A stretch of 64,000 bases of DNA from a virus. Both the position numbers and the translations under genes were made by a program. Numbering within the stretch: the stretch's first letter is position 1; each line of letters begins with the position of its first letter. Shown here one piece after another: positions 23,877 to 45,207 of this stretch. Below the pieces are notes generated by a model. The model searched no databases. It worked only from the letters and a program-made list of their open reading frames with translations, and was not told where the DNA came from. The stretch is taken from IMG/VR virus record IMGVR_UViG_3300005537_000002, positions 32,001 to 96,000 of that record; one strand, 5' to 3'.

Positions 23877-24953
23877 ATGTTAGACACACGTATTAAGGAA
23901 ATGGTGGTTGCTTATAGCAACTTAATCGAGTCGTACGGAGGCCCAACCGAATTTGCAAAGCAGGGTGCGTACAGTACGCCGTATTGGGGGACTCAGCAGA
24001 TTACGAGCTATCCACAAGTTGTAACCCAACTTGTGGAGATAGCTCCACAGTACGTAGACTTGACTGCTGGTGGTGGTAGGTATCCGGTGCATCGAGCACA
24101 GCAAGGTCAGCGAGTCGCTTGTAACGACCGCTGTGTATATGCTGCAGTGTCGTTGGACGCAGTGCTGTGTAGTAAAACGACGCATACACTCGGATTCGAA
24201 GAGTGGCTAGAGGCATTCGCTCAAGCTACACATCCGATCTACGTAGCTTCTCGAAAGGGTTGGCTGCATAGACGTGCAGCGAAAGGTGATGTACTAGAAG
24301 GTTTCGAGGCAACAGCCTCGTACATCGACGGGTTGGTGAGTCAATTCGAGCGAGACTCGTTAGTGCTGGCTGCTGTAGGTGCAACTTTAGTTGAGGACTG
24401 TTCGCACAACGGGCTGAGTTGGTTGCAAGATGTCAGTTCCGTAACGACGGACGTGTTTTGGCGTAGTTTTGTACGTGAAGCTGTACGTATACGCTGTACT
24501 ATTGACAGTATGCCTATGCACGGGTATGTGCATCAGGTTACGAATATGGACGCACTCGAGTCACTCGACAACCTACATATCGAAGGAGGAGCTGTCTGCT
24601 ATATCGATCCGGCTTGGCCTTGGATGAGTACAGACGGAGCTAACCCGTATACGTTCTTCAGCACTCAAATATCAGCTGTGCTAGCGCAAAGTGATCTGCA
24701 AGTACCGTTCTGGAGTAGACATGAACCCGAAGCTGTGTACGCGGAGATTGGGACCTGGATCAACCGAGCGTTCGAGAAGGGTGCGGCCTACTTTATCGTA
24801 AGCACACAGGGTACGAACTCGCCTCCGCCAAACGATCTGTACGATTGGTTGGGTACAGAGTTTGATCTTACACACGTAGAGAACGTGGTGGCGAAGAGTT
24901 CCCGCACCGGTAAAGAATTCGTAGAGTGGTATGGTATAGTGAAAGCGTCGTAG
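23877..24953 (+). CDS. divergent amino-methyltransferase-fold protein A
   Basis: Motif I-like YVDLTAGGG, ACND, motif IV-like YIDPAWPW; paralog of 35046-36089 and 44143-45207. Confidence 0.6.
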   Translation: MLDTRIKEMVVAYSNLIESYGGPTEFAKQGAYSTPYWGTQQITSYPQVVTQLVEIAPQYVDLTAGGGRYPVHRAQQGQRVACNDRCVYAAVSLDAVLCSKTTHTLGFEEWLEAFAQATHPIYVASRKGWLHRRAAKGDVLEGFEATASYIDGLVSQFERDSLVLAAVGATLVEDCSHNGLSWLQDVSSVTTDVFWRSFVREAVRIRCTIDSMPMHGYVHQVTNMDALESLDNLHIEGGAVCYIDPAWPWMSTDGANPYTFFSTQISAVLAQSDLQVPFWSRHEPEAVYAEIGTWINRAFEKGAAYFIVSTQGTNSPPPNDLYDWLGTEFDLTHVENVVAKSSRTGKEFVEWYGIVKAS

Positions 24954-25030
24954 CCTAATACCATATCTACGTTATACTGCAGAGCTGGAGCTCTGCAGTA
25001 TTGATTTGTATACATATATAACATATACTA

Positions 25031-25103
25031 AAGTATAGAGCGGTTCGGAGTGTTGGCTCCGATGAGTTCTCACCCAACTCATACAGCGGACCGCTCTATA
25101 CTT
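25031..25103. other. three-way-junction structure, candidate ncRNA or terminator
   Basis: 14-bp outer stem enclosing two 6-7 bp hairpins. Confidence 0.5.
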
Positions 25104-25181
25104 AGGGGACACTCTTAAAAGTCACTGGCAGTACATTATAATTATTCATACTTATACTGTATACAGTGCTAGGAACTGTCA

Positions 25182-26246
25182 GTGCCTGTTCGTACTATTT
25201 CTGCTTCACAACTGCAAGAGTTCTCTACTTGCAGACGACGCTGGGGCTATAGTGCCCTAGAACATTTGGATAGCCGGAGACAGTCGTATGCTTTATGGTT
25301 CGGCATCGGGGTACACCACGCACTAGATCGATTTTATTCCTTAGGCTTCGACCCTTCTGTAAGCTTTGATACGTGGTGGTCTACTGAGACTACCAAGCAA
25401 CAGGCAGGTCAACGTTCGCTGTTGGGTGAACGGGATATTGAACAGAAGTGGCTTGAGTTACGTCAGTTAGGTATAGGCATGCTATCACACTATCGGGAAT
25501 GGGCTCGTCTGCAGGACGACTTCGAGGTACTAGCAACAGAGGCGGACTTTCGGGTACCCATTCCCGAAACCGAAGGTCACTTAGTTGGCAGGTTCGACGG
25601 CATTATACGACTATGGCGCAGACCAAACGACGTGTATTTACTCGAACACAAGAGCTACAGTATCAAACCCCCACAATACTTCCTGCTACTCGACGAACAG
25701 ACTAACGTGTATCAGTGGGCAGCTACAAAACTACTTGCAAGTGGAGATTTAGCACAGTACGGTGTACCTGAAACCGCCACTGTTAAGGGTGTGTTGTATA
25801 ACGGGTTGAGGAAAGCCGTTCCAACTACTCCCCCGCTTGCTGACGACGGTAAGAGTTTACTAAGGGACGCGCGTATTGCTACAACGTATGAGTTGTATTT
25901 AGCTTCTATACGGGAGCACGACTTTTCGCCGAGTGACTATGCTGATGTGCTAGTGAAGTTGAAACTACGTGGTAACCGCTATTTCTATCGAGAGTGGATA
26001 CAAAGGTCAGCAGAGGAGCTGACTAGACTAGAGCGGAGACTGACCTCGCAATTTAGGGCCATGTCTAACCCGGAAGTTGCCCTACTTCCGTCGCCTACGT
26101 GGGATTGCTACTGGCGGTGTCCGTACTTCTCGTTGTGTGTCGCTGAAAACACTGGGAAGGATTATGACGAGATCAAAAGGACGCAGTACGCTCCTAGGGT
26201 ATGGTCTAGAGAGAAAACACCGTCAACGACTGACGATTTCCTGTAG
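25182..26246 (+). CDS. PD-(D/E)xK RecB/Cas4-like exonuclease 1
   Basis: ISASQLQEFSTCRRRW, GIGVHHALD, GRFDG, LLEHKS, QTNVYQW, CYWRCPYFSLC. Confidence 0.8.
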   Translation: MPVRTISASQLQEFSTCRRRWGYSALEHLDSRRQSYALWFGIGVHHALDRFYSLGFDPSVSFDTWWSTETTKQQAGQRSLLGERDIEQKWLELRQLGIGMLSHYREWARLQDDFEVLATEADFRVPIPETEGHLVGRFDGIIRLWRRPNDVYLLEHKSYSIKPPQYFLLLDEQTNVYQWAATKLLASGDLAQYGVPETATVKGVLYNGLRKAVPTTPPLADDGKSLLRDARIATTYELYLASIREHDFSPSDYADVLVKLKLRGNRYFYREWIQRSAEELTRLERRLTSQFRAMSNPEVALLPSPTWDCYWRCPYFSLCVAENTGKDYDEIKRTQYAPRVWSREKTPSTTDDFL

Positions 26247-26275
26247 GCGCTGCCTTGGTGTTAGACTCCGCCCTC

Positions 26276-26304
26276 TTGATTTTGTTTATGTAATCCTTTA
26301 TAAT
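26276..26304 (+). promoter_or_regulatory. sigma70-type promoter
   Basis: TTGATT-N17-TATAAT. Confidence 0.7.
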
Positions 26305-26325
26305 ATAAATAAGAAGATTTAATAA

Positions 26326-27492
26326 ATGAGGAGGCAACAAGTGACCCAAGACAACAAACGCAACCCGTTTAGAGTCGTTGCCCTACCCGTAAGACGCATA
26401 AGTGCCACTGGTATAAGCGAATTTAAGGAATGTAGGAGGAGATGGTACTACTCTAACGAGTCCCAGTTGAATTTGGAGCCTAAACGTGGGACAGTTGCGT
26501 ACGACTTTGGGAGAAAGATTCATCATGCGTTAGAGCGACACTATCGGGATGGTGTGCATGCATCCGATGCGTTTGTAGAAGTATTTGATAGTGATGTAAC
26601 TCGTATGGTAGAAGTGGGGATGATGGGAGATGACTATAGCAAGTACGAAGCTATGCGTGAATTGGGTGTGCAAATGCTGACGTATTACGAGAACTGGGCT
26701 AGCACTCACGACGACTTCAAGATGCTGCACACCGAGTTTGAATTTGAAATCCCGCTAGTCGACTATGACGGAACAGACTTAGGGGTCTATTTTGTGGGGC
26801 GTATTGACGGTATCGTCCGTACTAATGACGGCCTGTATTATTTAATCGAGTACAAGACGGCTGGTACACATTTGGCCAGTGACGTCATGCTACTAGATGA
26901 GCAGACAGCTAGATACCAGTTAGCGGCTCAGTGGTTGATACGCAATGGTAAAGTACCGGGTATACCTAGTGATGCTATACTAAGTGGGGTTATTTACACG
27001 GCACTGCTTAAAAAGATAGTTAAACCCCCACTACTACTCAAAAACGGAAAAGGGTTGAGTAAGGATATAGTCACCAACCCAACTACGTACGAGCTGTATC
27101 TGAAAGCGATACAGGACAATGGCTTTAACGAAAGCGACTATGCAGCTGTGCTAGATAAGCTGCAGAACACGTACCCAACTGGTACGATATTTGTGCGTAG
27201 AGAGTATGTGTTGAGGAGTAAGGACGAGATGCAGGGTCATGCACACAGGCTAATGTTGGAAGTGAGGGAGATGTCGAGAGAGAACCTACCTATTTATCCT
27301 AGTCCCAAATGGGACGGCTCTTGCGCGTGGAGTTGTCCGTATCATGCGCTGTGTGTGACGGAAAATATAACTGGAAATCTCGGGGGTGAGGTAGACTTCC
27401 GCATACGTAACGAGTTTGTGCAGCGTCCACCAAGGGGAGGAGTCTACCAACAGCCACGAGAAGGAGGATACGACGGCCAAGAGTTAGGCTAG
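26326..27492 (+). CDS. PD-(D/E)xK RecB/Cas4-like exonuclease 2
   Basis: ISATGISEFKECRRRW, GRKIHHALE, GRIDG, LIEYKT, QTARYQL, CAWSCPYHALC. Confidence 0.8.
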   Translation: MRRQQVTQDNKRNPFRVVALPVRRISATGISEFKECRRRWYYSNESQLNLEPKRGTVAYDFGRKIHHALERHYRDGVHASDAFVEVFDSDVTRMVEVGMMGDDYSKYEAMRELGVQMLTYYENWASTHDDFKMLHTEFEFEIPLVDYDGTDLGVYFVGRIDGIVRTNDGLYYLIEYKTAGTHLASDVMLLDEQTARYQLAAQWLIRNGKVPGIPSDAILSGVIYTALLKKIVKPPLLLKNGKGLSKDIVTNPTTYELYLKAIQDNGFNESDYAAVLDKLQNTYPTGTIFVRREYVLRSKDEMQGHAHRLMLEVREMSRENLPIYPSPKWDGSCAWSCPYHALCVTENITGNLGGEVDFRIRNEFVQRPPRGGVYQQPREGGYDGQELG

Positions 27493-28391: not shown

Positions 28392-28409
28392 CAGAAAGGG
28401 ACAGCAACA

Positions 28410-28994: not shown

Positions 28995-29405
28995 ATGGAA
29001 CAGGCATTAATTCGAAAGGCCTTCAAGTTTGAGTCTGCACATCAATTACCACATCATAGAGGTCAGTGTGCTAGACTCCATGGACATTCTTACCGGTTAG
29101 AGGTTTTTGTGTACGGTCCGATACAAGAAGTAGTCGAAGACGCACCTGACAGTAGTGAGGGCATGGTAATGGACTTTGGTGATATAAGTGCGGTAGTAAA
29201 GGAACACATTATTACTAGACTCGACCACTACAATCTGAATGACGTGGTTCCCGTTCCAGTAACGACTGCAGAGTTAGTCGCTTGCTGGATTCGAGATACA
29301 TTGCTCCCCTACGTGCCAAATTTGTTTGCCATACGTCTTTGGGAGACCGAAGACGGCTACGCTGAAGTGTACGTAGGCGGAGCAAACTTCAAGTTGTTGC
29401 CGTAG
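28995..29405 (+). CDS. queD: 6-carboxytetrahydropterin synthase
   Basis: FESAHQL...CARLHGHSY, MDFG, LDHYNLN, TTAE, RLWET. Confidence 0.93.
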   Translation: MEQALIRKAFKFESAHQLPHHRGQCARLHGHSYRLEVFVYGPIQEVVEDAPDSSEGMVMDFGDISAVVKEHIITRLDHYNLNDVVPVPVTTAELVACWIRDTLLPYVPNLFAIRLWETEDGYAEVYVGGANFKLLP

Positions 29406-29454: not shown

Positions 29455-30234
29455 TTGAGTATTGACACTCAGACAGTCTCCGAAGTTGAACCAAACGTCG
29501 TTGAACGGAAGTTTACTGTCAGTGAGATTTATGGAGACGTAGTTCAGGGGGAAGGAACTATGACTTACGTACGCACCCATTTCTTACGGATGGGTGGCTG
29601 CGACTACCAACATTGCAGTTGGTGTGATAGTTTGTACGCAGTTCTCCCAGAAGAGGTACGTAAGTTGGAACGGTTATCCGCAAAGGAGATCGTTACAAGA
29701 ATACTTAGTCTACCTAGAGCTCCATACGTTACCATTAGTGGGGGTAATCCGGTAATGCACAAACTAGATGACGTAGTTGATGCATTGCACGCTGCAAATT
29801 ATTGTGTGGCAGTCGAGACTCAGGGAACGCTTTGGAAAGACTGGGTAGGACAGTGCGAGTGTATCACTTGCTCTCCTAAACCACCTAGCTCAGGTATGAC
29901 GACCAATTGGTCGTTACTGGACAATTTCATCGCCAAGTCAAGACTTGCCAACACACAACTGTGCTTAAAGGTAGTCGTCTTCACTGATGATGACTACGAG
30001 TACGCACGGACGGTGTACCATAGATACAGATGCGATGATGGGAGTACACCATTCTACCTACAAACTGGTACGATACTGCCAACTACAGAGAATCCGAATG
30101 GGGATACAGTTTATACTCTAACCCAACGATATAGAGAGTTGACCGAACGAGTACTAGCGGACGGTGACATGCAGTATGCTAGACCTAGTTGTCAACAGCA
30201 TGTACTGATGTACGGCCACAAGAGAGGAATCTGA
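29455..30234 (+). CDS. queE: 7-carboxy-7-deazaguanine synthase (radical SAM)
   Basis: VQGEG...FLRMGGCDYQHCSWCDS, ISGGNP, VETQG, SPKPPSSG, LKVVV. Confidence 0.92.
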   Translation: MSIDTQTVSEVEPNVVERKFTVSEIYGDVVQGEGTMTYVRTHFLRMGGCDYQHCSWCDSLYAVLPEEVRKLERLSAKEIVTRILSLPRAPYVTISGGNPVMHKLDDVVDALHAANYCVAVETQGTLWKDWVGQCECITCSPKPPSSGMTTNWSLLDNFIAKSRLANTQLCLKVVVFTDDDYEYARTVYHRYRCDDGSTPFYLQTGTILPTTENPNGDTVYTLTQRYRELTERVLADGDMQYARPSCQQHVLMYGHKRGI

Positions 30235-30251
30235 CATTGACAACGCAGCGT

Positions 30252-31028
30252 ATGCCGTTCAACTTAAGTGCGGAACTTGTTGCCGGTCTTCGTAAGCAAT
30301 CCGTACGAGCTTGTCTGCAGTGTGGCGTAACGGAAGCCCAGTCGTTGGAGTTAACGGGTAGAGGTTTGCAGACACATAGGGTTAAGAGTGGGGAAGTGAC
30401 AGAGGACATTGTAATGTGCCACGACTGTCACTTCCGCCAGCATAATGACCCGGAAGTGGACCGAGCACGATATCAAACTGTGCTAGCTTCTACTCGTAAT
30501 TGGCTGGAATCCTTAGGGGTAGACCTAACACACGGCGACTTCAGAGAAACTGCTAGGAGAGTGGCTACATACTACTTAGGACACTTTAAGTCTCCGGATT
30601 CTGTTGAGTACGAGTTAGAACAACTACGACAGGCGAAGTTCTCGACAGGATATAGTGGTATGGTAGCTGTATCCGGCATTCAAGCGGACGGTCTCTGTCC
30701 TCACCATCTGCTACCTGTACGATATACTATTAAAGTAGGGTATCTCCCCTACGAAGGTAGAGCAATCGGCCTGTCTAAGCTGCCGAGGGTAGTTGAGTTA
30801 TGTGCCAGCATACCTCGATTACAAGAAGATATCACGATGTGGATAGCGGAAGAGGTTTCGCTAGCTGCAGAAACTCCTCACGTAGCTGTGCAAATTGTGG
30901 GGAAGCACAGTTGTATGGAGATTAGGGGCGTCCGTCAACGTAAGTCGGATACTACAACTACAGTGCTTCTAGGTCACTTCCTAGAAGAAACTAATTCTCA
31001 CCGCGAATTCCTAGCGCTCACCGACTAG
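30252..31028 (+). CDS. folE: GTP cyclohydrolase I with N-terminal CxxC..CxxC extension
   Basis: ETARRVA, LCPHHLLP, IGLSKLPR, LQEDIT, HSCMEIRG; start uncertain (30237 TTG or 30252 ATG). Confidence 0.88.
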   Translation: MPFNLSAELVAGLRKQSVRACLQCGVTEAQSLELTGRGLQTHRVKSGEVTEDIVMCHDCHFRQHNDPEVDRARYQTVLASTRNWLESLGVDLTHGDFRETARRVATYYLGHFKSPDSVEYELEQLRQAKFSTGYSGMVAVSGIQADGLCPHHLLPVRYTIKVGYLPYEGRAIGLSKLPRVVELCASIPRLQEDITMWIAEEVSLAAETPHVAVQIVGKHSCMEIRGVRQRKSDTTTTVLLGHFLEETNSHREFLALTD

Positions 31029-31547: not shown

Positions 31548-32351
31548 ATGCAAGCGTCAATCATCAGTCCTGTATCTTTACTAGATGCAGTTTCATTACG
31601 ACAGAAACTGCATCTAGTCTTAGTACAGGAGCTGGAGAGAAGCAAGGCGTATGCAGACTTCTATACGAACGTTATACGGCCTAGAGGTGACTACCTTATT
31701 CTAGATAATGGCGCGTTCGAGCTAGGAGAAGCTGCTAGTGCTGAACTACTCCTCAAATGGGTACGATTGCTGCATCCGGATGAAATTGTGTTACCGGATG
31801 TACGCGAGGATTCCTTTGCTACGCTTAGTCGCACAACCGACTTCATACAGCACGTCTTACCGTTGATAGACTACCCGATTAAGTGTATGGCAGTGCCTCA
31901 AGGGAAAAACTTGCAAGAGTGGATGATGTGCTTGCATATTATGCTGTCTATACCCCAGATTACGTGTATCGGACCTTATGAGGAAAGTGCCGACTGGTTC
32001 CCTTACGGGGGTAGACTTTCGCTACTCGAACGTATCAAGTCCGATGTGCTGGGTAAGGTCGACGTACATCTCTTAGGCATGGATGAAGACCTAGTAGAGT
32101 TGAGGGTAGGTGGACCTACGGTCTGTAGTTGGGTGCGTAGTACGGACTCATCAAAACCAGTGTGCTATGGTCTAGGGGGTGTGAAGTTAGATGCACAGTA
32201 CGGTCCTAGGGGTGTGAAGTATCCTGGTAGATCGAAGGACTTCTTCGAGTGTACTGTATCACCCACACAACGTGAAGCGGTACTGCATAATGTGGATGTA
32301 CTGCACGGGTGGTTAACTGATGAGTCGAGGGTGAAGTGTGTGGTACTGTAG
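31548..32351 (+). CDS. dpdA: TGT-fold DNA 7-deazaguanine transglycosylase (DpdA-like)
   Basis: ILDNGAFE, DEIVLPDV, MAVPQG, VHLLG, RSTDSS motifs; adjacent to que genes. Confidence 0.72.
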   Translation: MQASIISPVSLLDAVSLRQKLHLVLVQELERSKAYADFYTNVIRPRGDYLILDNGAFELGEAASAELLLKWVRLLHPDEIVLPDVREDSFATLSRTTDFIQHVLPLIDYPIKCMAVPQGKNLQEWMMCLHIMLSIPQITCIGPYEESADWFPYGGRLSLLERIKSDVLGKVDVHLLGMDEDLVELRVGGPTVCSWVRSTDSSKPVCYGLGGVKLDAQYGPRGVKYPGRSKDFFECTVSPTQREAVLHNVDVLHGWLTDESRVKCVVL

Positions 32352-32473: not shown

Positions 32474-34048
32474 GTGTGTAGTATATCCGGTGTGATTATG
32501 CCCGAGGGTACTTCGTACCTGAGTACGAGGCTACGGCATATCATAGATCAGGCATGTGAGAGAGGTCGTGACAGTTGGGGTACTGTCACGCTGCATACAG
32601 ATCATACATACAGCAGCGTACGCTATACTGGTAGTCCGATCGAGACAGGGGTCGCTGGTACGTATCTACCTAGTAGCGCTAGGATATGTATATCGACATG
32701 TAGGGCGGAGCCAACTACAGAGTGGGTACGGGAGAAAGGTATATACGATATACCACCATTCGTACATGGGAATTGGGCTTGTGCTCATAATGGATGCATA
32801 GCCAACGATAAAGAGTTGGTACAGCGGTATGGACTATCGTTGGGTACGTCTATAGATACAGCGGTTATACCGGCCGTGTTGGACAAGATATGTCCCGACG
32901 AACTCGATCTGGATCGTATACAGGAGTTCCTACGAGACGAGATCGAGGGTTCGTATGCTCTTGCGCTTGTGAATAGACGACATCCGGATACGCTTATCCT
33001 AGCCGTGAACTATCAACAACTATACATCGCGTATGATCAGCAGGCGGGTGCGTTGTTCTTCACCTCTATGGAAGAACACCTGTACGATGATACAGATATA
33101 CACCGCAGACTCGTACAGGGAGGGGTAGTAGAAGTACCTGCATACTCCATGCAGGTAGTACATCTTCCATCCCATAGGGGTAGTACATCTGTCATGGGTA
33201 GCAGTACTACCCTGCATGCAGGGTACAGTACAGATACAGGGCAGGGTAGTAGTACAGCCATGCAGGGTACAGTACAGATACAGGGCAGGTCCTTAAGGCA
33301 GTCCAGGGATGTACATAAGGCCCTGGTGGTCTGTAGTGGTGGACTAGACAGTACAGTAGCTGCTAGGGAGATGCAGGTACGTGGGTACGATGTTACACTG
33401 CTGCACTTCCTGTACAAGTGCAGGGCACAGGAGGGTGAGGTAGAGGCTGTACGTAAGATAGCAGCTGCCATGAACGTACCCTACCTATTCTGGGAGACAG
33501 ACTTCTTCACCAAGGTAGGTGGGTCTAGACTCACTAACACACACGGAGAGATCAACCGAGAAGGTGGTGGAATAGCAGGAGCAGAACTAGCTTGGGAGTG
33601 GTGTCCCGCAAGAAACACTGTCTTTCTAGCTATGGCTGCAGCTATAGCCGAAGTGCACGACTTTGAGTGTATTGTGTTAGGAGCAAATTTAGAAGAGGCC
33701 GGAAGTTATGCAGATAATACTCTCCCATTCATACGTAAGTTGGATGCAGTACTACCGTATGCACTCAATCTACACCACTACGTACGACTGGAGGCACCTC
33801 TCGTCAACCTGATGAAGCACGAAATCGTAGCATTGGGCCTGAAAAATGGTGCGCCGATGGAGCATTCGTACTCGTGCTATGAGTACGGAGAGCACCACTG
33901 TAACAACTGCGGTCCTTGCTTCTTACGTAAGACGGCGTTTAAGATGAACGGGACAGTGGATCCAGTGTTCGAGCATCTGTCTGAGGACGAGTTTTGGAGT
34001 GGGTGCGTTCCCTACTCCAAACGATCGGATCCAGCCATAGTTCGTTAG
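32474..34048 (+). CDS. queC: class II glutamine amidotransferase-QueC fusion (Gat-QueC)
   Basis: N-terminal MCSISG (Ntn Cys2), RGRDSWG, HNGCI, DT; QueC part SGGLDS, CPARNTVFL, SCY...HCNNCGPCFLR. Confidence 0.9.
   Translation: MCSISGVIMPEGTSYLSTRLRHIIDQACERGRDSWGTVTLHTDHTYSSVRYTGSPIETGVAGTYLPSSARICISTCRAEPTTEWVREKGIYDIPPFVHGNWACAHNGCIANDKELVQRYGLSLGTSIDTAVIPAVLDKICPDELDLDRIQEFLRDEIEGSYALALVNRRHPDTLILAVNYQQLYIAYDQQAGALFFTSMEEHLYDDTDIHRRLVQGGVVEVPAYSMQVVHLPSHRGSTSVMGSSTTLHAGYSTDTGQGSSTAMQGTVQIQGRSLRQSRDVHKALVVCSGGLDSTVAAREMQVRGYDVTLLHFLYKCRAQEGEVEAVRKIAAAMNVPYLFWETDFFTKVGGSRLTNTHGEINREGGGIAGAELAWEWCPARNTVFLAMAAAIAEVHDFECIVLGANLEEAGSYADNTLPFIRKLDAVLPYALNLHHYVRLEAPLVNLMKHEIVALGLKNGAPMEHSYSCYEYGEHHCNNCGPCFLRKTAFKMNGTVDPVFEHLSEDEFWSGCVPYSKRSDPAIVR
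33215..33289 (+). repeat. 31-bp direct repeat inside the Gat-QueC linker
   Basis: CATGCAGGGTACAGTACAGATACAGGGCAGG at 33215-33245 and 33259-33289. Confidence 0.9.
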
Positions 34049-34064: not shown

Positions 34065-34120
34065 ACTAGGTCTGTTGTTGTTTAGTTGCGAGAGTCTTCC
34101 GAAAGGGGAGAAAGGTACGT

Positions 34121-34272
34121 CTTTCGATATGATCCACTATTCCAAACAATAGTGGATCATATCGAATCGGTGGGCTCTCGCATATTTTCAAGTGTGGAAC
34201 GTGCTAAAGAGAGGTCGAGTAGATCATACCGGGTGGATCCACTATCGATGTGTTGGTGGATCATATCGAAAG
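34121..34272. repeat. cluster of GTGGATCATATCGAA motifs (inverted and direct)
   Basis: Reverse copy 34121-34140; forward copies 34149-34166 and 34256-34272; degenerate copies between them. Confidence 0.8.
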
Positions 34273-34322
34273 GTACCCGCATTGCGCTGATACGAGCACC
34301 TTTCATAGAAAGGAATACGCTC

Positions 34323-34928
34323 ATGCGTAAGTTGGATAGTTCAGGCATGCCTAACAATTGGCGAACGAAACTGAGACCTCAAACTGTTCGCCCTTGGGTT
34401 ACGGTAGGGGGTTTAGTACTCGCAGCTATTGGGGTTGGCGAGGCCTTCGGCAAGCAGTACACGTTCGCCACGACGTTACTAGCTGGGTTAGTCGTACTGC
34501 TATTGGTAGCTGATCTTTGGCTCTACAACGCATCTTCATACTTATTAGAAGGTCGTATAGAAGGGCTACTCCAAGACGTTAACGAAGAACAACAACGTTA
34601 CGAGGCTCTGCTGAAACGTAACGATAAGTTGGAGAGGGAGCAGCAGGAGTTTGCTAGTTTGCTAAAGGAGGCGTATACGCAAGATCGGCAGGGAACTAAC
34701 CTACAAGCACGCGTAGTATCACCGGGTAGGTATCAAGTACAGAGCACCTTCGGTAAGTGGTATAACATTCACTGGAACTCTTCGGGACTCGCCTGTGAGT
34801 GTAGATTGTACGCCACCTGCAATGAATGTCCCCACAGTGCGAAGGCTCGCAGAATGCATGAAGTAGTTATCAAGACTGGACAGCAACCTTCCTCGACGAC
34901 AGACAACTTGGGTCCTTGGCTCAGGTAA
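34323..34928 (+). CDS. membrane protein with coiled coil and C-terminal SWIM-like zinc finger
   Basis: Two TMs, a heptad region and YQVQS...Y.I...CECRLYATCNECPH; start reassigned to the ATG with an AAAGGA RBS. Confidence 0.6.
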   Translation: MRKLDSSGMPNNWRTKLRPQTVRPWVTVGGLVLAAIGVGEAFGKQYTFATTLLAGLVVLLLVADLWLYNASSYLLEGRIEGLLQDVNEEQQRYEALLKRNDKLEREQQEFASLLKEAYTQDRQGTNLQARVVSPGRYQVQSTFGKWYNIHWNSSGLACECRLYATCNECPHSAKARRMHEVVIKTGQQPSSTTDNLGPWLR

Positions 34929-34932
34929 CCTC

Positions 34933-34961
34933 TTGTATACTTGAGTATAGTACACTATAAT
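34933..34961 (+). promoter_or_regulatory. sigma70-type promoter
   Basis: TTGTAT-N17-TATAAT. Confidence 0.6.
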
Positions 34962-35045
34962 ATATTGTATAAGTATTCAAGCGTATACGAGGTTTTTAGC
35001 ACAGTGAGGTACACATTTAGTCCGTTCGTGACTAGGAGACCCAAG

Positions 35046-36089
35046 TTGCAGGAAGCAGTTGAGTACGCCACACCCATGTGGCGTACTCAGAGGCCTACAG
35101 TATTTCCTAAGTCGACTATGGACGTAATTACGTCATCTCCCCAGTTCGTTGACGTAGCTGTCAATAGTGGGTCGATGGTCTTCTCTCGTGCACTTGCTTC
35201 TCAACCTACTGCAAGCAATGACCAGAACATCTTCGCTATCGAGTCCTTAAAGTCGGTTTTGCAGTGTACTACCGACTTGAACGTGCCTAGAGACGACTGG
35301 TTCGAACGCTTCTGTGCTAACGTCCATCCAGACAACCTCAATTACGAACCCGGCTACATTACGGACCGGTTCGTGTACTCTCCTGCGAAGTCTAGGCCTC
35401 ACATGCTACGAAAGACAGCTGTGTACTTAGACACTCTACTGCAACGATACCCTACTTCACTTATGAGAGCTTGTGTGGGGTACGCTATACTGCGTACGTA
35501 TACTTGGCGAGAAGTGAGTTGGAGTAGACTGTCTAAACAGGGCAAGCTTATACAAGGGAGGAGGCCACACAAACTATGGGAGCCGATTTGTAGACGAGCT
35601 TGGTCTCTACGACTGGCAGCGGAAGAGTTTGCAAAGACTCCCACGAGAAGGCTACATCAAATATCGGAGACTAGCGTTCTACAGGCTATACGAACCTTCG
35701 ACATCTATACGGGTGCAGTCGTGTATGCAAACCCTCTGTGGCCGTGGATGTCCACAGACGACTGGTCCGCGTATAGTCAGTTTACCGCTGACCTGAACTC
35801 CATACTTATGCAATGTCCGGTCAAGACTTCCAACTGGAGTGACAATAGGAGCCTTGATACTATCTACAAGGAGGTGACTAGTTGGATTGAAGAATCCTTT
35901 GCAAGAGGCGCCGGATTCTTCATACTCAACACGCAAAGCTCTAACTTTCCACAACCTGACGACCTATATAGTTGGTTGAGAACTAGATACGGTCGTCATC
36001 TGCTACTTGTCGAAGAAGTAGCTACCCAAATTAGCGCCCAACAGCCGTTTTCTGAGTGGTTTGGAACTATCCGGAATCCGACACTATAA
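35046..36089 (+). CDS. divergent amino-methyltransferase-fold protein B
   Basis: FVDVAVNSG, ASND, YANPLWPWMSTD; clear paralog of A. The track start at 34941 overlaps a promoter; TTG 35046 has a GGAG RBS. Confidence 0.55.
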   Translation: MQEAVEYATPMWRTQRPTVFPKSTMDVITSSPQFVDVAVNSGSMVFSRALASQPTASNDQNIFAIESLKSVLQCTTDLNVPRDDWFERFCANVHPDNLNYEPGYITDRFVYSPAKSRPHMLRKTAVYLDTLLQRYPTSLMRACVGYAILRTYTWREVSWSRLSKQGKLIQGRRPHKLWEPICRRAWSLRLAAEEFAKTPTRRLHQISETSVLQAIRTFDIYTGAVVYANPLWPWMSTDDWSAYSQFTADLNSILMQCPVKTSNWSDNRSLDTIYKEVTSWIEESFARGAGFFILNTQSSNFPQPDDLYSWLRTRYGRHLLLVEEVATQISAQQPFSEWFGTIRNPTL

Positions 36090-36748: not shown

Positions 36749-36964
36749 ATGGATGTAAAATCAACCCTTCGCATAGCTTTCCTACTTATTGGTAGGCAAA
36801 TCGCGGCTGAGTTTCTGTCACAGGCAGTTTGTAAGAGACTCGAGCGAGAAGATATACCAGATGACTCGTGGATGTCTGAGAGCCACGAGTATCCATTTCA
36901 CACTATCGTAGCTCAAGCTATGTGCGACGCTTTATTCGATATACAGAGTACCTCGCACGACTAG
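36749..36964 (+). CDS. hypothetical protein
   Basis: 71-aa ORF with AAAGG RBS. Confidence 0.45.
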   Translation: MDVKSTLRIAFLLIGRQIAAEFLSQAVCKRLEREDIPDDSWMSESHEYPFHTIVAQAMCDALFDIQSTSHD

Positions 36965-38184
36965 AACGGAGCTTGTGTTTGAGCGAAAAAAGGAGGGTAC
37001 GACTTTTAGGTATTAGTCTCATAGTAGTGATGGTGCTGTTCATAGTGGTGATGTCGCTACTATTATGGAACTTACTACTCAAACCTACGGAGGTAAAACA
37101 TCATATGACTCTTAATACTATGGGTGGCTATGTATTTCCGGACGACGCAGTTTGCGACGCACCTAGTCAGTACTCCGACGGAAGGGTTATCAATACTCTT
37201 AACGTCGAGTATCTACATGTTGATTCTGGTGGAGCACTTGTAACCCTGACTAGTGGGTGTAACGCGTATAACGACTCGAATGTAGCTTCTGTCAAAGCAC
37301 ACAGCAACAGGCAGTTCGTAACTGTCAGTGGGGATAGTGGTGGGTTTCAAGTACTCATAAGCGATACTCAGCTTACAAACACCTTTATCAGTACGGTACA
37401 AGCATTTCTCTCGAAGATAGGGTTTACCGGAGTTGAGTTGGACTTTGAGGACTTCGGTTCTTGGACTTCCTCTCAGTATGCCAGTTATGTAGCGTTCGTC
37501 AAACGTCTTAGTACTGAGTTGCATAGCACAGGGCACTTACTAGCTATCGACTGCCCAGCGATATCCGACCAAACCTATCAGAGCTACTATCCTCACTGGT
37601 CATATAAAGACTTCGACGGGGTTCAAGTAGAGTTACGCGTGATGGCGTACGACTACGAATACGACCAGGGTGCAGGTAATCCGATAGCGCCTATAGACTG
37701 GATCACCAACATTTGTAAGTGGACTAGGTCTCAAATCACTGATCCTAGTAGGATCACTATCATACTCAACTCTTACGGGTACCACGGAGTGAGAAATAAG
37801 TACGCCGCTAATCGAGATACATACAGCCAGTCAAAAGCCTACTACGGTTTTAATACAGCTTCAAGGGATGCTTCTTCTGGTGAGATGACTTGGTCTGTAG
37901 GGGGCGAGGTCTACTACTATACGGACAGCGAAACGTTGAACCAGAAAGTGACCGCTGTGCTAAACTCTGGTACGGGTATCAACAACATTGCCATCTTCCA
38001 CTTAGGTGGAGGAAACAAGTGGCCAACGGTTACTCCTCCACCTACACCGGTGTCCACACCAACAGTTACGAGTGACGTGTCTCCAGCACTCTCTTCTCTA
38101 CTGAAGTGGATGGAAGCCGAACTACCGAGTTGGTACGCAGCTAACTTCGACTCGACTGGAAAGTATATTGGAGGTAGTCACTAG
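36922..38184 (+). CDS. glycoside hydrolase family 18 (chitinase/YaaH-like)
   Basis: GFTGVELDFE catalytic motif, VMAYDY, PIAPIDW, GIAIFHLG-like end; an alternative start at 37105 (GGAGGT RBS) would remove the N-terminal TM. Confidence 0.8.
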   Translation: MRRFIRYTEYLARLERSLCLSEKRRVRLLGISLIVVMVLFIVVMSLLLWNLLLKPTEVKHHMTLNTMGGYVFPDDAVCDAPSQYSDGRVINTLNVEYLHVDSGGALVTLTSGCNAYNDSNVASVKAHSNRQFVTVSGDSGGFQVLISDTQLTNTFISTVQAFLSKIGFTGVELDFEDFGSWTSSQYASYVAFVKRLSTELHSTGHLLAIDCPAISDQTYQSYYPHWSYKDFDGVQVELRVMAYDYEYDQGAGNPIAPIDWITNICKWTRSQITDPSRITIILNSYGYHGVRNKYAANRDTYSQSKAYYGFNTASRDASSGEMTWSVGGEVYYYTDSETLNQKVTAVLNSGTGINNIAIFHLGGGNKWPTVTPPPTPVSTPTVTSDVSPALSSLLKWMEAELPSWYAANFDSTGKYIGGSH

Positions 38185-38651
38185 TGCCATCAACGTATTA
38201 CGAGGACTATGTAATACCTCCACCATTTACATTACCAGCTAAACAGGTTGGACAGATGACTCTACCGGAAGCGTTATCGATGGCACAGTGTGTAAGCGAC
38301 CCGTACGCTAAGAGGCGTAGGAAGGGGTATAGCATGATCACTGTGCTATATCTGCTGACGTATAGCGTGGTTGCGTTCGACATAGATAGTATAGTTTACT
38401 GGAACATCGAAACGTGGACCTTTCGAGTCGTGCTGTGGATAGCAGTTATGATAGTATGGGCTAACTTCGTTAGCGGAACCCTACGTATACGGCCGACTAG
38501 ACGGCAGGTTGTAGAGATGGCTACGACACTAAGTATGAAAGCAGTCTCGATCTCTAAGCTGGCACGCGGTCGGAAAATCTCTTTCCCAAAGGTTATACCA
38601 AACGAGGATACCACTACCTACTTAAGAGCCATTAAGCGGAAGCTAACGTGA
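38184..38651 (+). CDS. two-TM membrane protein
   Basis: Two hydrophobic helices; translationally coupled to the GT2 gene. Confidence 0.55.
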   Translation: MPSTYYEDYVIPPPFTLPAKQVGQMTLPEALSMAQCVSDPYAKRRRKGYSMITVLYLLTYSVVAFDIDSIVYWNIETWTFRVVLWIAVMIVWANFVSGTLRIRPTRRQVVEMATTLSMKAVSISKLARGRKISFPKVIPNEDTTTYLRAIKRKLT

Positions 38652-39994
38652 GATCTGTTTATAAAAGTATTACGTATAGTGCATTGTGGATGGTTACGGC
38701 TGCTATAGCAGCTTCAACTAGGTTTATACAACCGCATCCATTCGATACGCCGTTTCTCGATACGATGAGACACGTTATAGTCTTCTTTGCGTCTATACTA
38801 CTAGCGAAATACTTCTTCTATATGGTAGTAGCTCCATTCTACGACGTAATAGAGAGTCGCAGAGTCGTTACTACGCTTATGGCGGACTACTACCCGTTAG
38901 TGTCAGTGATGATACCTGCCTGGAACGAAGAGGTAGGTCTACTAGGTACGGTCAAGACGCTACTAGACTCCACCTACAGACATGTGGAGCTCGTCATTGT
39001 GAACGATGGTAGCACAGATGGCTCGCACGCAATGATGCTCAACTTCGTCAGTAAGTATAACGAGCAGATGACTGACGTACCCGAGTACAAGCGCATACGT
39101 ATACTCTACCACTACCAACCAAACGGAGGCAAGGGAAGCGCACTAAACACAGCGATCCAACTGTCTCACGGAGCTATACTACTGTCCATTGACGCTGACT
39201 GTCACGTTCACGCCCGCTGTATTGAGGAGTTCGTGAACGCATTCCGTAACCCTAAAGTTATGGCTGCCGTCGGTAACGTGAGGGTAGGCAATACAAAGTC
39301 ACTCGTGGGTACAATCCAGTACCTAGAATATATCTTCGGATTCTACTTTAAGAAAGCGGACAGCTTGCTCAACACCATCTATATTATCGGTGGAGCGGCT
39401 GGTGCATTCCGGCGGGAAGTGTTTCAAGTGATTGGTGGGTATAATACCAAGAACATTACGGAAGACATTGAGCTATCCGTCCGAATACAGGAACAAGGTT
39501 GGAAAATCGTTTACTGTCCTGGAGCACTCGTACTAACTGAGGGAGCGTCTACACTCACAGGCTTGAAGAAGCAACGCTACCGTTGGAAGTACGGTCGGTT
39601 CCAAACGTTTATGCAGCATCGCAACTTGTTCTTCTCGACTGAGCGTAGGCATAACAAGTTGCTGTGCTGGGTGATACTACCGCTAGCGATATTTGGGGAG
39701 GTGCAACTCGGACTTGAGTTACTATTTATCACTATGCTATACGTATTCGCACTCCTATCGGGTGACTTCTCGGCATTTCTGAGTGGTGTATTTGTAGTCT
39801 CTCTCATGTTCGGCGTACAAGCACACGACAGTGGAGAGTTCAACATCAGCACTCTACTGCTAGCACCTATAGGGTGGCTACTATTCTACGTCACCACCTA
39901 CGTCGAGGTGTACGCACTTATCCGGAGTATATGGAATCTAATCCGCAAACGCGACGTACAGTGGCAGAAGTGGAAACGAACCGGTGTACAATGA
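38648..39994 (+). CDS. processive GT2 glycosyltransferase (PgaC/IcaA/chitin-synthase-like)
   Basis: SVMIPAWNE, VNDGSTD, NGGKGSALN, IDAD, TED, KQRYRW (QxxRW) and multiple TMs. Confidence 0.9.
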   Translation: MRSVYKSITYSALWMVTAAIAASTRFIQPHPFDTPFLDTMRHVIVFFASILLAKYFFYMVVAPFYDVIESRRVVTTLMADYYPLVSVMIPAWNEEVGLLGTVKTLLDSTYRHVELVIVNDGSTDGSHAMMLNFVSKYNEQMTDVPEYKRIRILYHYQPNGGKGSALNTAIQLSHGAILLSIDADCHVHARCIEEFVNAFRNPKVMAAVGNVRVGNTKSLVGTIQYLEYIFGFYFKKADSLLNTIYIIGGAAGAFRREVFQVIGGYNTKNITEDIELSVRIQEQGWKIVYCPGALVLTEGASTLTGLKKQRYRWKYGRFQTFMQHRNLFFSTERRHNKLLCWVILPLAIFGEVQLGLELLFITMLYVFALLSGDFSAFLSGVFVVSLMFGVQAHDSGEFNISTLLLAPIGWLLFYVTTYVEVYALIRSIWNLIRKRDVQWQKWKRTGVQ

Positions 39995-40893
39995 CAAACA
40001 AAGAAAAAGGGTTCACTATGGCGGTGTGTATAAATTGTGGAAAAGGACTTTCTCTATGGAACAGACTTGTGAGACAGACCATATGCAGTGAATGTGGTGA
40101 ATACTTTCAGAACGAACGTTATAGGTGGCTGTCTGCGATCGAGAGGGACTTTTCTAGAGGAGGTGTATCCTTAGAGTTGGAGACCCAAATGTATCAACAC
40201 TTCCAAAGTATACATATGCCTGAGTATGAAGGCATCCCTGTCATAGAAAAGATGAGATACTTTAGAGAACTTTCGGAAGTGCAGTGGGGTAATGTACCAA
40301 CCATTCGTATAGATAGGCATCTAGACTCAGATGAGTACGCCTACTTCTCGTTCGAGACTACGTACTATAATAAACAGCTAAGACCCGTCGAGGGTATATT
40401 GGTAGGTACTAACAAGAAGTGCTACTTCCACCCCATATCTGGCGTAGGTGGAGTACATATCAATTGGGGTAATATAAGCCAAGTGAAGGAGGAGTCCGTA
40501 CGAGTATACACCCATCCCAGACCTCTACGAGGTGTTACAGAACAGTTGGTAGTCAAGAGGGTTTTAAGAATCTCCGTATCTGCCAGTTCCGGTGGAGGGG
40601 ATTACTACGTAAGAGACCCGTTTAAGGCTTGTATCTACATCGACACTCTTGTACGTATTTGGAAGAGACAACTAATCATTCGTAGAGAGTTAGGCACATA
40701 CGGAGACGTACCTAATCACGTAAAGTCTGATGTGTATAAACGAGATAAGGGATGCTGTCAACAATGCGGCTACAGTGGGGACTACATCGAGTATGACCAC
40801 ATCATACCTCGGAGTAAGGGAGGGTCGAATACGGTAGATAATATACAACTTCTTTGTAGGAGATGTAATTTGCAAAAGGGAGATAGGCTGTAA
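39991..40893 (+). CDS. HNH endonuclease with N-terminal zinc ribbon
   Basis: CINCG..CSEC; C-terminal RDKGCCQQCG..IEYDHIIPRSKGGSNTVDNIQLLCRRCN. Confidence 0.85.
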   Translation: MTNKEKGFTMAVCINCGKGLSLWNRLVRQTICSECGEYFQNERYRWLSAIERDFSRGGVSLELETQMYQHFQSIHMPEYEGIPVIEKMRYFRELSEVQWGNVPTIRIDRHLDSDEYAYFSFETTYYNKQLRPVEGILVGTNKKCYFHPISGVGGVHINWGNISQVKEESVRVYTHPRPLRGVTEQLVVKRVLRISVSASSGGGDYYVRDPFKACIYIDTLVRIWKRQLIIRRELGTYGDVPNHVKSDVYKRDKGCCQQCGYSGDYIEYDHIIPRSKGGSNTVDNIQLLCRRCNLQKGDRL

Positions 40894-40919
40894 CAACCAA
40901 AAAAAAGGAGGCATACGGA

Positions 40920-42167
40920 TTGAGTCCGTATACAGCAACCGTCAAGAAGAGACGGTCACGCAAACTATATACTAAGTACGATGCTATAGTACGGTGGGTA
41001 GTCGTGGCATGTGCTAGCATGTTGTTGAATGCAGCATTATTAGATGTCGCATTATGGATATACCCCTTACAGAGTCTGAGTCAGCTAGTAGTGTGGAATA
41101 CGCTGGTGTCAGCTATCGCTTCGATATGCGGCATGGTAGGGTATCGATTGTGGGTATTGGGGAGATACCGTATGCTAACAGCAGAGGAGTTCGGTAAATG
41201 TCTATCTATACTCACTTTCGAGTCTTTGGTGGACACGATGTTAGCTGTACTAAGCCAGTTCGCTAGTATTATGCTAGTGGGAGACTTATTACCCACTACT
41301 ACTATGAAACTAATTGCGGTTATAGGGACGTTCATCCTGTCCACTGTGCTACTTAAACAATGGATGGGTAAGAAGCCTGTATATGAGTGCATCATGAAAC
41401 CTTCTCGAGCGTCTATACGTAGACAACACTACACGTTGTCAGTCGTAATGGTAGCACAGGACAATGCGGATTATATTCAGCATACTGTACATCAAATGTA
41501 CGAGTCCCTAACGTACATGGTCGATGACTTCGAAGTCATCGTAGTCAACGACGGTAGTGCCGATCATACAGGTGTGCTGTTAGAGGCTATATCTATCATG
41601 ACCCCGCGAGTTAGGGTAGTGAATTACGCCAAACCTCGAGGATACTCTACAGCTTTAGCGACCGGACTCAAACTAGCGTGTAAGGAACTGACATTCATTA
41701 CCTCTTCAGACGACCAGTTCGACATACAGGATCTAGCGTTCTTCCTTCCGTATATGTGTGAGTACGACGCGGTTTTCGGTTACCCCTTCGGCGAGACTGG
41801 CAGTCGTTTCGAGAGATTCTGTACGTGGAGTTGGAGTACGTTAGTCAGTCGGACGTTCGGACTTAACGTAAGAGACGTCGACTGCGAATTCAAACTATTT
41901 AGAACTGACTTCTTTACGGACTATGAACTGACTGTCACTGACTCTCGCTTAGTGTATGTAGACATGTTGTATCAGTTAGCACAGTCGGATAGGTCGTATA
42001 CCGAAATGGGCGTACTACAAACACCAACTGTACTAGAACGTAAGAGAGACACAAGCCTGCTGAGCTTGGTTAAGAACGCGTCTGCACTACGAAAGTATGT
42101 TAAGGAACGGAAAATCAGTAGTTACGGGCACCACCTACACTCGAACGCTGCGATACGTACCTCTTGA
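40920..42167 (+). CDS. membrane-anchored GT2 glycosyltransferase (DPM-synthase-like)
   Basis: Four N-terminal TMs; LSVVM, VVNDGSADHT, GYSTAL, SSDDQFD, DVDCEFKLFR. Confidence 0.8.
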   Translation: MSPYTATVKKRRSRKLYTKYDAIVRWVVVACASMLLNAALLDVALWIYPLQSLSQLVVWNTLVSAIASICGMVGYRLWVLGRYRMLTAEEFGKCLSILTFESLVDTMLAVLSQFASIMLVGDLLPTTTMKLIAVIGTFILSTVLLKQWMGKKPVYECIMKPSRASIRRQHYTLSVVMVAQDNADYIQHTVHQMYESLTYMVDDFEVIVVNDGSADHTGVLLEAISIMTPRVRVVNYAKPRGYSTALATGLKLACKELTFITSSDDQFDIQDLAFFLPYMCEYDAVFGYPFGETGSRFERFCTWSWSTLVSRTFGLNVRDVDCEFKLFRTDFFTDYELTVTDSRLVYVDMLYQLAQSDRSYTEMGVLQTPTVLERKRDTSLLSLVKNASALRKYVKERKISSYGHHLHSNAAIRTS

Positions 42168-42193: not shown

Positions 42194-42267
42194 ATAAATA
42201 ATGTATATCACAAAAACAAATCGAGGGATAATCCCTCGAGCGTCCAGTAGTAAAGGAGCAGTCAGCA

Positions 42268-42651: not shown

Positions 42652-42678
42652 TAATCTAGCCCGAAAGGAGCGCCCTTA

Positions 42679-43505: not shown

Positions 43506-43521
43506 ACGCTTACATATTTGT

Positions 43522-44127
43522 ATGATAGACAGTCACGCTAAGCTCGTAGTGAAGCATAAACACTCGAAGACTCATTTGGGTCCGGAAAAAGGATGGCACG
43601 AACACGTGCTACCGATAGCAACCATATACAGTGGACTGCAGGATAGTGACATAGTGAGTTGGTCTGTTCAAGTGTTCAAATCCCTCGTCGGAGAACCTCC
43701 TCCCGCTCCAAACGCTCAGTATGATAAGAAGTACTTACGGCTGCTTATGCCCCTAGTAAGCTGGGAGAAGCTAAACAGGGTCGTGTACGACCCTGTACTC
43801 CAACCCTGTGTGGAAATACAGGTAGGAAATCTGTCACTTATCTGCAGCGACGATCAAGAGTTCATCACTCCGGACATAGGTTGGATACCCCTAGACCAGC
43901 TGAAGCCCCGACAGTACATTATGATGAACACTGTACGCGGTAGAGCACAGTACGCTCGTATCTCTCAGATCAAGAGAGTCTCGTCTCGTACGGGCTATAA
44001 CTTAGACTGTAGAAACTTTGTAAGCAACGACTTTATTAGCAGGTCGCCACAATTCGTAGCCGGTTATCCCATACCGAAGCGAATAGCTATGGCTGAGATA
44101 CTCGACTCGCCCACAGACATTCTATAG
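43522..44127 (+). CDS. degenerate free-standing Hint (intein-like) domain protein
   Basis: LICSDDQEFITPDIGWIPLDQLKPRQYI (block B-like) and ISQIKRV..TGYNL..RNFVSNDFIS (block F/G-like); no catalytic His or Asn. Confidence 0.55.
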   Translation: MIDSHAKLVVKHKHSKTHLGPEKGWHEHVLPIATIYSGLQDSDIVSWSVQVFKSLVGEPPPAPNAQYDKKYLRLLMPLVSWEKLNRVVYDPVLQPCVEIQVGNLSLICSDDQEFITPDIGWIPLDQLKPRQYIMMNTVRGRAQYARISQIKRVSSRTGYNLDCRNFVSNDFISRSPQFVAGYPIPKRIAMAEILDSPTDIL

Positions 44128-44142
44128 AGGAGATGCACTGTC

Positions 44143-45207
44143 GTGTTAAAGCCATTCAGTCAAATCGTTAGAGTACCCTCTACGGTAGGGTCTCTACCCT
44201 ACATCACATCATACTACCAATCCCCCTCTTGTAAGACCCTACATACTAAGTTCTGGCCCCTAGTCGAACAGCACACACAGTTTATAACGCTCTCTGCTGG
44301 AAACGGTGGAGTTGCATACGAGGCTGCGAGTAAAGGACTTAAGGTTGCGGCATACGACCGTTCGGTGTACACGATACTCTCGCTAGACGACGTACTCAAC
44401 CGAGATACGCTACCTCAACTATCCTATGACCTGCCTACCAACGAGTGGTTCGAACGTTGGTGTTCTCCTATTACACCTAGTACCACCAACGTAGCACAAG
44501 AAGGCGTACTAGTTGCCAGACATACGACACAGTTAGCTCCACACCTTTCGCTCGAGACTGCTAAGTACCTAGACACCTTACTCATCTGCAAGAACTACTG
44601 GCCTCTATTGATGAGTTCGATTGGCAGAACGCTACTACAACTGTGCTCCAATCGGGGTGTACGCTGGTCGAACTTAATGCCAGACGGTAGATCGACTAGG
44701 GAACTTACACCGGAAGAAGCCTTTCACTCGATAGCTAGGAGCACCTGGCGTACGAAGATGTTCTCAGACAGTTTGGATCACCACCTCGAGCATAACCTGT
44801 TCCAGCACAGCCTATTTGATGACCTACTGTCAGACTTCAGAGACTCTATATACCCAAACACACTCGTACACATTGATCCGGTGTATCCTTGGGAGACCTC
44901 ACTATATGAACGCTCTCATCACTACTTCTGTATGTCAGCTATCGACAGTATCCTAGTGCAGTCGGAATCAGCGTCAGTTCGGTCACCTTCGTACTGGCCC
45001 TCTACTATCTCAACCGACCTGACACTTTGGTTAGCTTGGTTTGGTGAGAGGCTACGTCGACTAAAGGATCGTACGGAAGCTACAATCGTAGTGACGTTTG
45101 GGTATCCCACTCCGACTGTACTTGAGACTGCTAGGTATCTTACGTCGTTGCTCCCTACTGCTAGTTGGGAGCAGTCGATTGCTGGTTGCATGCTTGTTAT
45201 CCATTAG
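44143..45207 (+). CDS. divergent amino-methyltransferase-fold protein C
   Basis: FITLSAGNGG, AAYDRSVY, HIDPVYPW; shares WFER and YLDTLL with paralog B. Confidence 0.55.
   Translation: MLKPFSQIVRVPSTVGSLPYITSYYQSPSCKTLHTKFWPLVEQHTQFITLSAGNGGVAYEAASKGLKVAAYDRSVYTILSLDDVLNRDTLPQLSYDLPTNEWFERWCSPITPSTTNVAQEGVLVARHTTQLAPHLSLETAKYLDTLLICKNYWPLLMSSIGRTLLQLCSNRGVRWSNLMPDGRSTRELTPEEAFHSIARSTWRTKMFSDSLDHHLEHNLFQHSLFDDLLSDFRDSIYPNTLVHIDPVYPWETSLYERSHHYFCMSAIDSILVQSESASVRSPSYWPSTISTDLTLWLAWFGERLRRLKDRTEATIVVTFGYPTPTVLETARYLTSLLPTASWEQSIAGCMLVIH

Follow-up and report, generated by a model that had tools for sequence, protein, structure and literature searches.

The DNA window analyzed here, 64,000 nucleotides corresponding to bases 32001-96000 of the 177.6-kb IMG/VR virus record IMGVR_UViG_3300005537_000002 (record G000), which has direct terminal repeats and is estimated to be complete, encodes three related proteins, paralogs A, B and C. 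Together with their relatives they form a family characterized by the motif DPAWPW, which is called family X in the following. Our analysis identifies family X as a divergent offshoot of the D12 (alpha-class) DNA amino-methyltransferases with the signature Y-x-D-P-A-W-P-W. Moreover, we assign a probability of roughly 0.55 to the reading that A is an active S-adenosylmethionine (SAM)-dependent DNA amino-methyltransferase working beside the deoxyarchaeosine (dG+) modification, and that B and C are derivatives which became specialised or inactive. The three genes are located as follows.

Paralog A: 23877..24953, plus strand; 358 amino acids (aa), a canonical member of family X with motif I YVDLTAGGG, motif II ND, motif IV DPAWPW and the C-terminal block TQGTNSP.
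Paralog B: 35046..36089, plus strand; 347 aa in a frame open from 34941, with motif I FVDVAVNSG, ASND, motif IV ANPLWPW and a basic helical insert.
Paralog C: 44143..45207, plus strand; 354 aa, the most diverged copy, with motif I FITLSAGNG, AAYD and motif IV IDPVYPW.

A preliminary description of this DNA had reported three open reading frames at these positions; all three are present on the plus strand, and every motif quoted there is found. The acidic motif of strand 2 reads ACND in A, ASND in B and AAYD in C, while motif IV of A is IDPAWPW; furthermore, PWMSTD and NxPxPxDLYxWL are common to A and B, and WFER and YLDTLL to B and C. The mutual homology that had been proposed for the three proteins was confirmed by pairwise BLASTP, in which A and B matched at 3e-53 (29% identity over 339 aa), B and C at 1e-22 and A and C at 9e-20. 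At the sequence level this similarity is far above chance and A, B and C are true paralogs. A family profile search of the whole 177.6-kb genome found exactly these three copies. The TTG at 35046 is a reasonable start for B, given the AGGAG ribosome-binding site and the promoter-like, AT-rich sequence ahead of it. The segment upstream of the AGGAG (34929-35045) is AT-rich and contains TTGTAT and TATAAT-like boxes, which suggests a putative promoter of its own for B.

The structural relationship was analyzed with an AlphaFold2 model of A alone, which was built on six sequences and reached a predicted local distance difference test score (pLDDT) of 82 and a predicted template modelling score (pTM) of 0.87. 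The predicted fold has the strand order of class I SAM methyltransferases with a helical insert of approximately residues 107-211 between strand 2 and strand 3. When the model was compared with the PDB using Foldseek, DpnM (2dpm, 5.8e-6), T4 Dam, M.CbeI (7m6b) and EcoDam were the top matches, and VIA-align gave Z scores of 11.3-11.9 over 216-228 residues, including the insert, for the same four enzymes. The matches found with both programs were methyltransferases throughout. In VIA-align the tRNA N2-methylguanosine (m2G) enzymes Trm14, TrmN and Trm11 tie for the top Z score with just ~170 residues aligned, and many small-molecule methyltransferases also reach Z values of ~11-12 on the core fold. 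The structural neighbours in the ESM Atlas are PF02086 clusters, with template modelling scores of 0.72-0.74 over 306-320 residues, the nearest clusters of C according to language-model features are D12 as well, and the top named matches in a viral structure library are DNA adenine or N4-cytosine methyltransferases. Collectively, these comparisons support the class I SAM methyltransferase fold with Dam/D12 architecture that had been assumed before.

The assignment of the family to the D12 class is based on the Pfam scan, in which 31 of the 108 scanned members matched PF02086 (E <= 0.01), the best at 8e-24. One DPAWPW-carrying member, P0062, scored 35.5 bits compared to the PF02086 cut-off of 22, and this 22-bit cut-off is exceeded by P0062, P0086 and P0099, all with DPAWP; hence, family X is regarded as a divergent offshoot of this class. 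The link of A, B and C themselves to PF02086 is one of transitive and not of direct homology, as judged from the sequence scans. The initial view that the catalytic motifs of these proteins are non-canonical was too strong in the case of A, because its DPAW fits (D/N/S)-P-x-(Y/F/W), represents the near-invariant consensus of family X and occurs in proteins passing the D12 cut-off. In all three paralogs positions 1, 2 and 4 fit the general amino-methyltransferase motif (D/N/S)-P-P-(Y/F/W), but position 3 does not. Since only the second proline of this motif deviates, DPAW appears as a variant and not as an alien motif.

Family X is small. An exhaustive profile search among 1.84 billion proteins gave 128 representatives, three relatives were returned by a word-index search covering 5.8 billion clusters, and the family was found solely in phage or metagenome contigs. 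Neither a tblastn search of 50,697 phage records with A and P0025 as queries nor a megablast search with a 20-kb part of the window detected a cultured-phage relative, and none was seen in a genome collection of 185,579 prokaryotic species, although this last result comes from one narrow motif-pattern scan and is weak evidence of absence. Likewise, no longer fused forms were found in a search that was skewed to 952-2715 aa and is hence weak. One member (9386-11017 in lineage L011) is a 543-aa fusion to DUF6884 and is encoded beside DUF932 and RecA genes; DUF6884 has been described as a YaaA-like domain with DNA-binding and base-flipping functions (PMC11701544).

The alignment of 73 near-full-length sequences defined the family signature as Y36-x-G38, D61-x-T-x-G65, N83-D84, Y88, G128, D151 and R178, followed in the C-terminal half by Y242-x-D-P-A-W-P248, P257-Y258, W279, W294 and Q311-x-T-N-x-P316. 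Conservation is high at the SAM-site positions (D61 99%, G65 99%, N83 90%, D84 96%) and in motif IV (D244 90%, P245 95%, A246 93%, W247 96%, P248 97%), and P316 is present in 100% of the sequences; Y-x-D-P-A-W-P-[WFY] is carried by ~90 representatives. The helical insert is the most variable region, with a mean identity of 20% versus 32%. Within this otherwise variable insert D151 (99%) and R178 (86%) are conserved.

Measured against this signature, the three copies are in rather different states. Paralog A retains 25 of the 26 positions, with R178 as sole loss. In B, Y36, G38, T63, G65 (now N), A246 and P257 are lost and D244 is changed to N, while C lost G38, D61 (now T), N83 (now Y), Y242, A246, P257, Y258, Q311 and N314 and has W247 changed to Y. 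A family hidden Markov model built without the window sequences scored A with 332, B with 240 and C with 140 bits, whereas the members included in the model reached 200-372 bits. In the tree all three proteins fall within the clade linked to que genes, as old divergences and not as recent copies. Tandem pairs in other phages consist of a canonical and a divergent DPIWPI copy that arose by lineage-specific duplication. The closest relative of this phage, L020, shares 40-50% identity across the module and contains a C-like gene 5' of its UDG-PolA gene, in which the motifs I, II and IV are gone and conservation is found in the helical insert alone. The earlier proposal that the proteins act as inactive decoys thus fits C and perhaps B, which lost conserved SAM-site residues, and does not fit A.

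The second component of our interpretation is the que/dpdA cluster of the same phage, which comprises the following genes.

28995..29405, plus strand: QueD, 6-pyruvoyl-tetrahydropterin synthase family (PF01242 at 7.8e-30).
29455..30234, plus strand: QueE-like radical SAM enzyme (phrog_2076 at 9e-34).
30189..31028, plus strand: FolE, GTP cyclohydrolase I (PF01227 at 2.8e-43).
31548..32351, plus strand: short DpdA-type DNA-guanine transglycosylase of 267 aa, a TIM barrel.
32474..34048, plus strand: Gat-QueC, a fusion of glutamine amidotransferase and QueC.

The 267-aa gene (31548-32351) is the DpdA transglycosylase. The profile of its family matches the solved DpdA structure 7ui4 at 3e-5, its AlphaFold2 model is a TIM barrel with a pLDDT of 94, the Foldseek top matches of this model are tRNA-guanine transglycosylase (TGT) or DpdA throughout, and the gene is orthologous to that adjoining the X gene in L004. 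The Pfam TGT model misses the protein, and its PHROGs entry phrog_20335 is annotated with "unknown function". It is short, having 267 aa where the DpdA chain solved in 7ui4 has 413 residues, and the C-terminal part of the longer TGT/DpdA proteins is absent. The word-index search returned 94 relatives of this short (~260 aa) DpdA family, some of them in archaeal and Acholeplasmataceae bins. Family X was also considered as a missing transglycosylase; this possibility is ruled out by its methyltransferase fold, which is not a TIM barrel, and by the identification of the 267-aa neighbour as DpdA. Based on the function of Gat-QueC reported for phage 9g (PMC6884629), the presence of Gat-QueC and DpdA leads to the prediction of dG+ in the DNA of this phage. 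A match to QueF was not obtained in these clusters, and they predict dG+ and not dPreQ1.

The adjacency of B to the que cluster, already recognized in the preliminary description, is correct, since Gat-QueC (32474-34048) is followed by a 280-aa gene (34086-34928) and then by B. Over the whole region, a PolA with 5'-3' exonuclease (20838-23648) is followed by A, two PD-(D/E)XK nucleases, AAA_24, DUF669, QueD, QueE and FolE; after FolE come a 165-aa gene, the 267-aa DpdA, Gat-QueC, the 280-aa gene and B; and B is followed by GH18, GT2, HNH, GT2, C, HNH and the UDG-PolA fusion (46982-50032). All three paralogs and the que genes lie therefore between two genes for family-A DNA polymerases.

The link to 7-deazaguanine genes turned out to be stronger than the preliminary description could know and holds across the family. 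The genomic context was sampled for 13 lineages of the 128 representatives, several contigs being too short or without DNA. In 10 of these 13 lineages, que or dpdA genes are found on the same record as X, often with X inside the cluster. The order FolE-X-DpdA occurs in L004/5/6/10 and L007, with overlapping stop and start codons and with Gat-QueC next where the contig continues, while L008/12/13 show QueD-QueE-X1-X2-FolE and their full records also contain DpdA and two QueC-like genes lacking the amidotransferase domain. In L012 and L013 (records G003 and G004) these QueC-like genes of ~250-276 aa stand in tandem on the strand opposite to QueD-QueE-X1-X2-FolE, and one of them may encode an amide-forming QueC variant. 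Moreover, L017 and L018 have the order DpdA-Gat-QueC-X, QueC adjoins X on the P0049 contig with X directly after Gat-QueC, the P0042 gene is located beside QueD, and the P0021 contig carries FolE and UDG-PolA together with X. In G005 (L014) X is found among sugar-nucleotide genes, with a short DpdA 23 kb away. Que genes near X were not seen in L011 (record estimated 16% complete), L016 (5.6 kb) and L019 (15 kb viewed). All records of sufficient size, among them G005, contain a DpdA. A query with Gat-QueC and one with a single DpdA did not return related loci. Because the adjacency persists through rearrangement, a co-selection of X with the que/dpdA genes is likely, although the phages are related.

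According to the favoured interpretation, A, with the full signature save R178, would bind SAM, flip a base out of duplex DNA and methylate its exocyclic amine, whereby adenine N6 or cytosine N4 would be the target by class default. The target sequence may be set by the variable helical insert. The methylation by A would then represent a second protective mark on DNA that carries dG+ made by the separate DpdA (31548-32351) and Gat-QueC, while B and C, after the loss of conserved SAM-site residues, could be specialised or catalytically dead and may keep a DNA-binding role alone. DNA is the favoured substrate of family X, because DNA enzymes alone match the insert together with the core, variability is highest in the insert and one member is fused to DUF6884. 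The finding that searches with PF02086, PF01555 or PF00145 did not reveal any other DNA methyltransferase in G000 was also counted for a DNA substrate. Several observations speak against this interpretation. A, B and C have no significant match in Pfam, PHROGs or NCBIfam and stay below every curated threshold, and in place of the second proline of DPPY they carry Ala (A), Leu (B) and Val (C). Paralog A is acidic (isoelectric point 5.0, insert 5.4), an uncommon property among enzymes that bind DNA. The sampled phages share a common PDDEXK/AAA_24/UDG-PolA module, hence the cases of linkage are not independent. Finally, the tight and rearrangement-resistant embedding of X in que clusters exceeds the need of a free-standing orphan Dam and points to a possible biochemical connection with the deazaguanine pathway.

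This embedding leads to a different possibility, which we consider unlikely on balance, namely that X methylates 7-deazaguanine in DNA after its insertion by DpdA, either at N2 or at the 7-substituent, for instance the dG+ amidine, which would create a base that has not been described so far. A modification of a 7-deazaguanine derivative had already been suggested in the preliminary description. The paralogs might then serve different sequence contexts, or canonical and degenerate copies might be catalytic and targeting subunits. Such a role would be consistent with the fact that X keeps its neighbourhood despite rearrangement, between FolE and DpdA, between QueE and FolE, after Gat-QueC or beside QueD, and with the presence of DpdA in every sufficiently large record even when, as in G005, X is 23 kb away; against it, L011, L016 and L019 showed no que gene nearby, though these are fragments. 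It would also agree with the profile search against PDB sequences, where the guanine-N2 methyltransferase RsmJ was the top solved-structure match and its DATAGLG/DPMFP were paired with DLTAGGG/DPAWP of X; however, this match is weak and not significant (E 0.04), and the m2G tRNA enzymes Trm14, TrmN and Trm11, despite their tie for the top VIA-align Z, align over ~170 residues versus 216-228 for the Dam enzymes. The conserved D151 and R178 in the variable insert could reflect recognition of a constant feature. The identical full signature occurs with Gat-QueC clusters and with the plain QueC-like genes of L012 and L013, which makes a substituent-specific reaction unlikely while N2 is possible. 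To our knowledge, all characterised D12-class enzymes act on adenine N6 or cytosine N4, which weighs further against a deazaguanine target.

That all three copies are non-catalytic and serve as DNA-binding or base-flipping accessories of the short DpdA or as decoys, with the fold kept as a scaffold, seems quite improbable. The state of B without G65 and the N-terminal Y-x-G and of C without D61, N83, Y258, Q311 and N314 would be in line with it, as would the C-like gene of L020 that kept the helical insert without motifs I, II and IV and the pairing of one canonical with one divergent copy in other phages. In addition, the short DpdA without the C-terminal part might need a DNA-handling partner. 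Nevertheless, the residues of the SAM site and of motif IV show 90-99% conservation in X and A keeps every signature position except R178, which argues for catalysis in canonical members. Furthermore, most short DpdAs probably work without X, since their family is far larger (94 matches versus 3 in the same word-index search). A target other than DNA, either RNA, for example guanine N2 of tRNA or rRNA, or a free deazapurine intermediate, is very improbable. The core fold ties at Z ~11-12 with tRNA m2G and many small-molecule methyltransferases, and besides the RsmJ hit one X member weakly matched PF04445 (RsmJ-type, E 0.067), with weak matches to Cons_hypoth95 too. However, DpnM, Dam and M.CbeI, all DNA enzymes, are alone in matching the helical insert plus core, PF02086 matches exist within X, one member is fused to the DNA-binding DUF6884, and the genes are situated in a replication/DNA-modification region between two DNA polymerase genes.

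Compared to known systems, family X shares with the Dam/D12 enzymes DpnM, T4 Dam, EcoDam and M.CbeI the class I SAM fold and the order of parts, i.e., SAM half, helical target-recognition insert and motif IV. In addition, ND ends strand 2, motif IV is at the same place and a subset of the family exceeds the D12 threshold of Pfam, which A, B and C do not. It differs in motif I (D-x-T-A-G-x-G instead of F-x-G-x-G), in motif IV (D-P-A-W-P-W instead of D-P-P-Y), by the conserved C-terminal Q-x-T-N-x-P block and by the association with que/dpdA clusters, which was not described for Dam enzymes in the papers searched. Regarding the RNA enzymes RsmJ (YhiQ), RsmD, Trm11 and Trm14/TrmN, the motifs D-A-T-A-G-L-G and D-P-M-F-P of RsmJ resemble D-L-T-A-G-G-G and D-P-A-W-P of X and the core reaches Z ~12, but they have no Dam-like helical insert. 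The dPreQ1 methyltransferase DpdM is likewise a methyltransferase encoded among phage 7-deazaguanine genes; it belongs to DUF3109, its metal site has the motif CxxxCxxCC and its fold is not of the Rossmann type (PMC10516641). In contrast, X has a Rossmann methyltransferase fold, A, B and C lack CxxxCxxCC, and the clusters predict dG+ instead of dPreQ1. An identity of X with DpdM is ruled out by the different fold and motif. The Pantoea phage MED16 encodes a Dam-superfamily methyltransferase and DpdA (ORFs 32 and 38), which were treated as independent modifications (PMC8306585). It provides a precedent for the coexistence of a Dam-type enzyme and DpdA in one phage as separate modifications, while its enzyme is a recognisable Dam-superfamily protein and X is missed by curated models and embedded in the cluster. 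The surveys of 2019 and 2023 (PMC6884629, PMC10516641) mention no Rossmann-fold methyltransferase in these clusters, and literature searches for the X motif and newer work found no description.

The surrounding genes deserve some comments. Directly downstream of A (25182-27492) two tandem PD-(D/E)XK nuclease paralogs are found, a pair that is conserved in L020. The region between B and C (36922-42167) contains a GH18 chitinase-like gene, a 448-aa GT2 with chitin-/cellulose-synthase-like matches, an HNH gene and another GT2; sugar-nucleotide and GT1 genes likewise adjoin X in L014 and L019. These genes might serve to glycosylate DNA or to produce a polysaccharide. The HNH endonuclease genes are located at 39874-40893 between the two GT2 genes and at 45217-45750, starting 10 bases after C, and both could encode homing endonucleases. 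The two flanking family-A DNA polymerases are a PolI-like enzyme with 5'-3' exonuclease (20838-23648) and a 1016-aa UDG-PolA fusion (46982-50032), for which synteny with the que cluster was observed in L004, L017, L020 and the P0021 contig. An SP15-like group of UDG-PolA fusions has been linked to thymidine-hypermodified phages (PMC13697223). Thymidine hypermodification was therefore considered and is unsupported, because a thymidylate-synthase homolog was not found in this genome.

The phage 7-deazaguanine pathways continue to yield new DNA chemistry, and no Rossmann-fold methyltransferase is among the gene sets published for them (FolE, QueD, QueE, QueC/Gat-QueC, DpdA, DpdL, DpdM, DpdN). Since family X is missed by Pfam, PHROGs and NCBIfam and yet is repeatedly embedded in deazaguanine clusters, it represents a concrete candidate that may either produce a further deazaguanine derivative or add a second, co-selected layer of methylation against restriction. 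In addition, a single phage lineage provides a natural series that starts with a canonical enzyme and ends with a pseudo-enzyme in full degeneration. If X is an ordinary adenine methyltransferase, the family would be a modest extension of the D12 class, whereas the methylation of inserted deazaguanine would lead to a new DNA base, for example N2-methyl or amidine-N-methyl deoxyarchaeosine.

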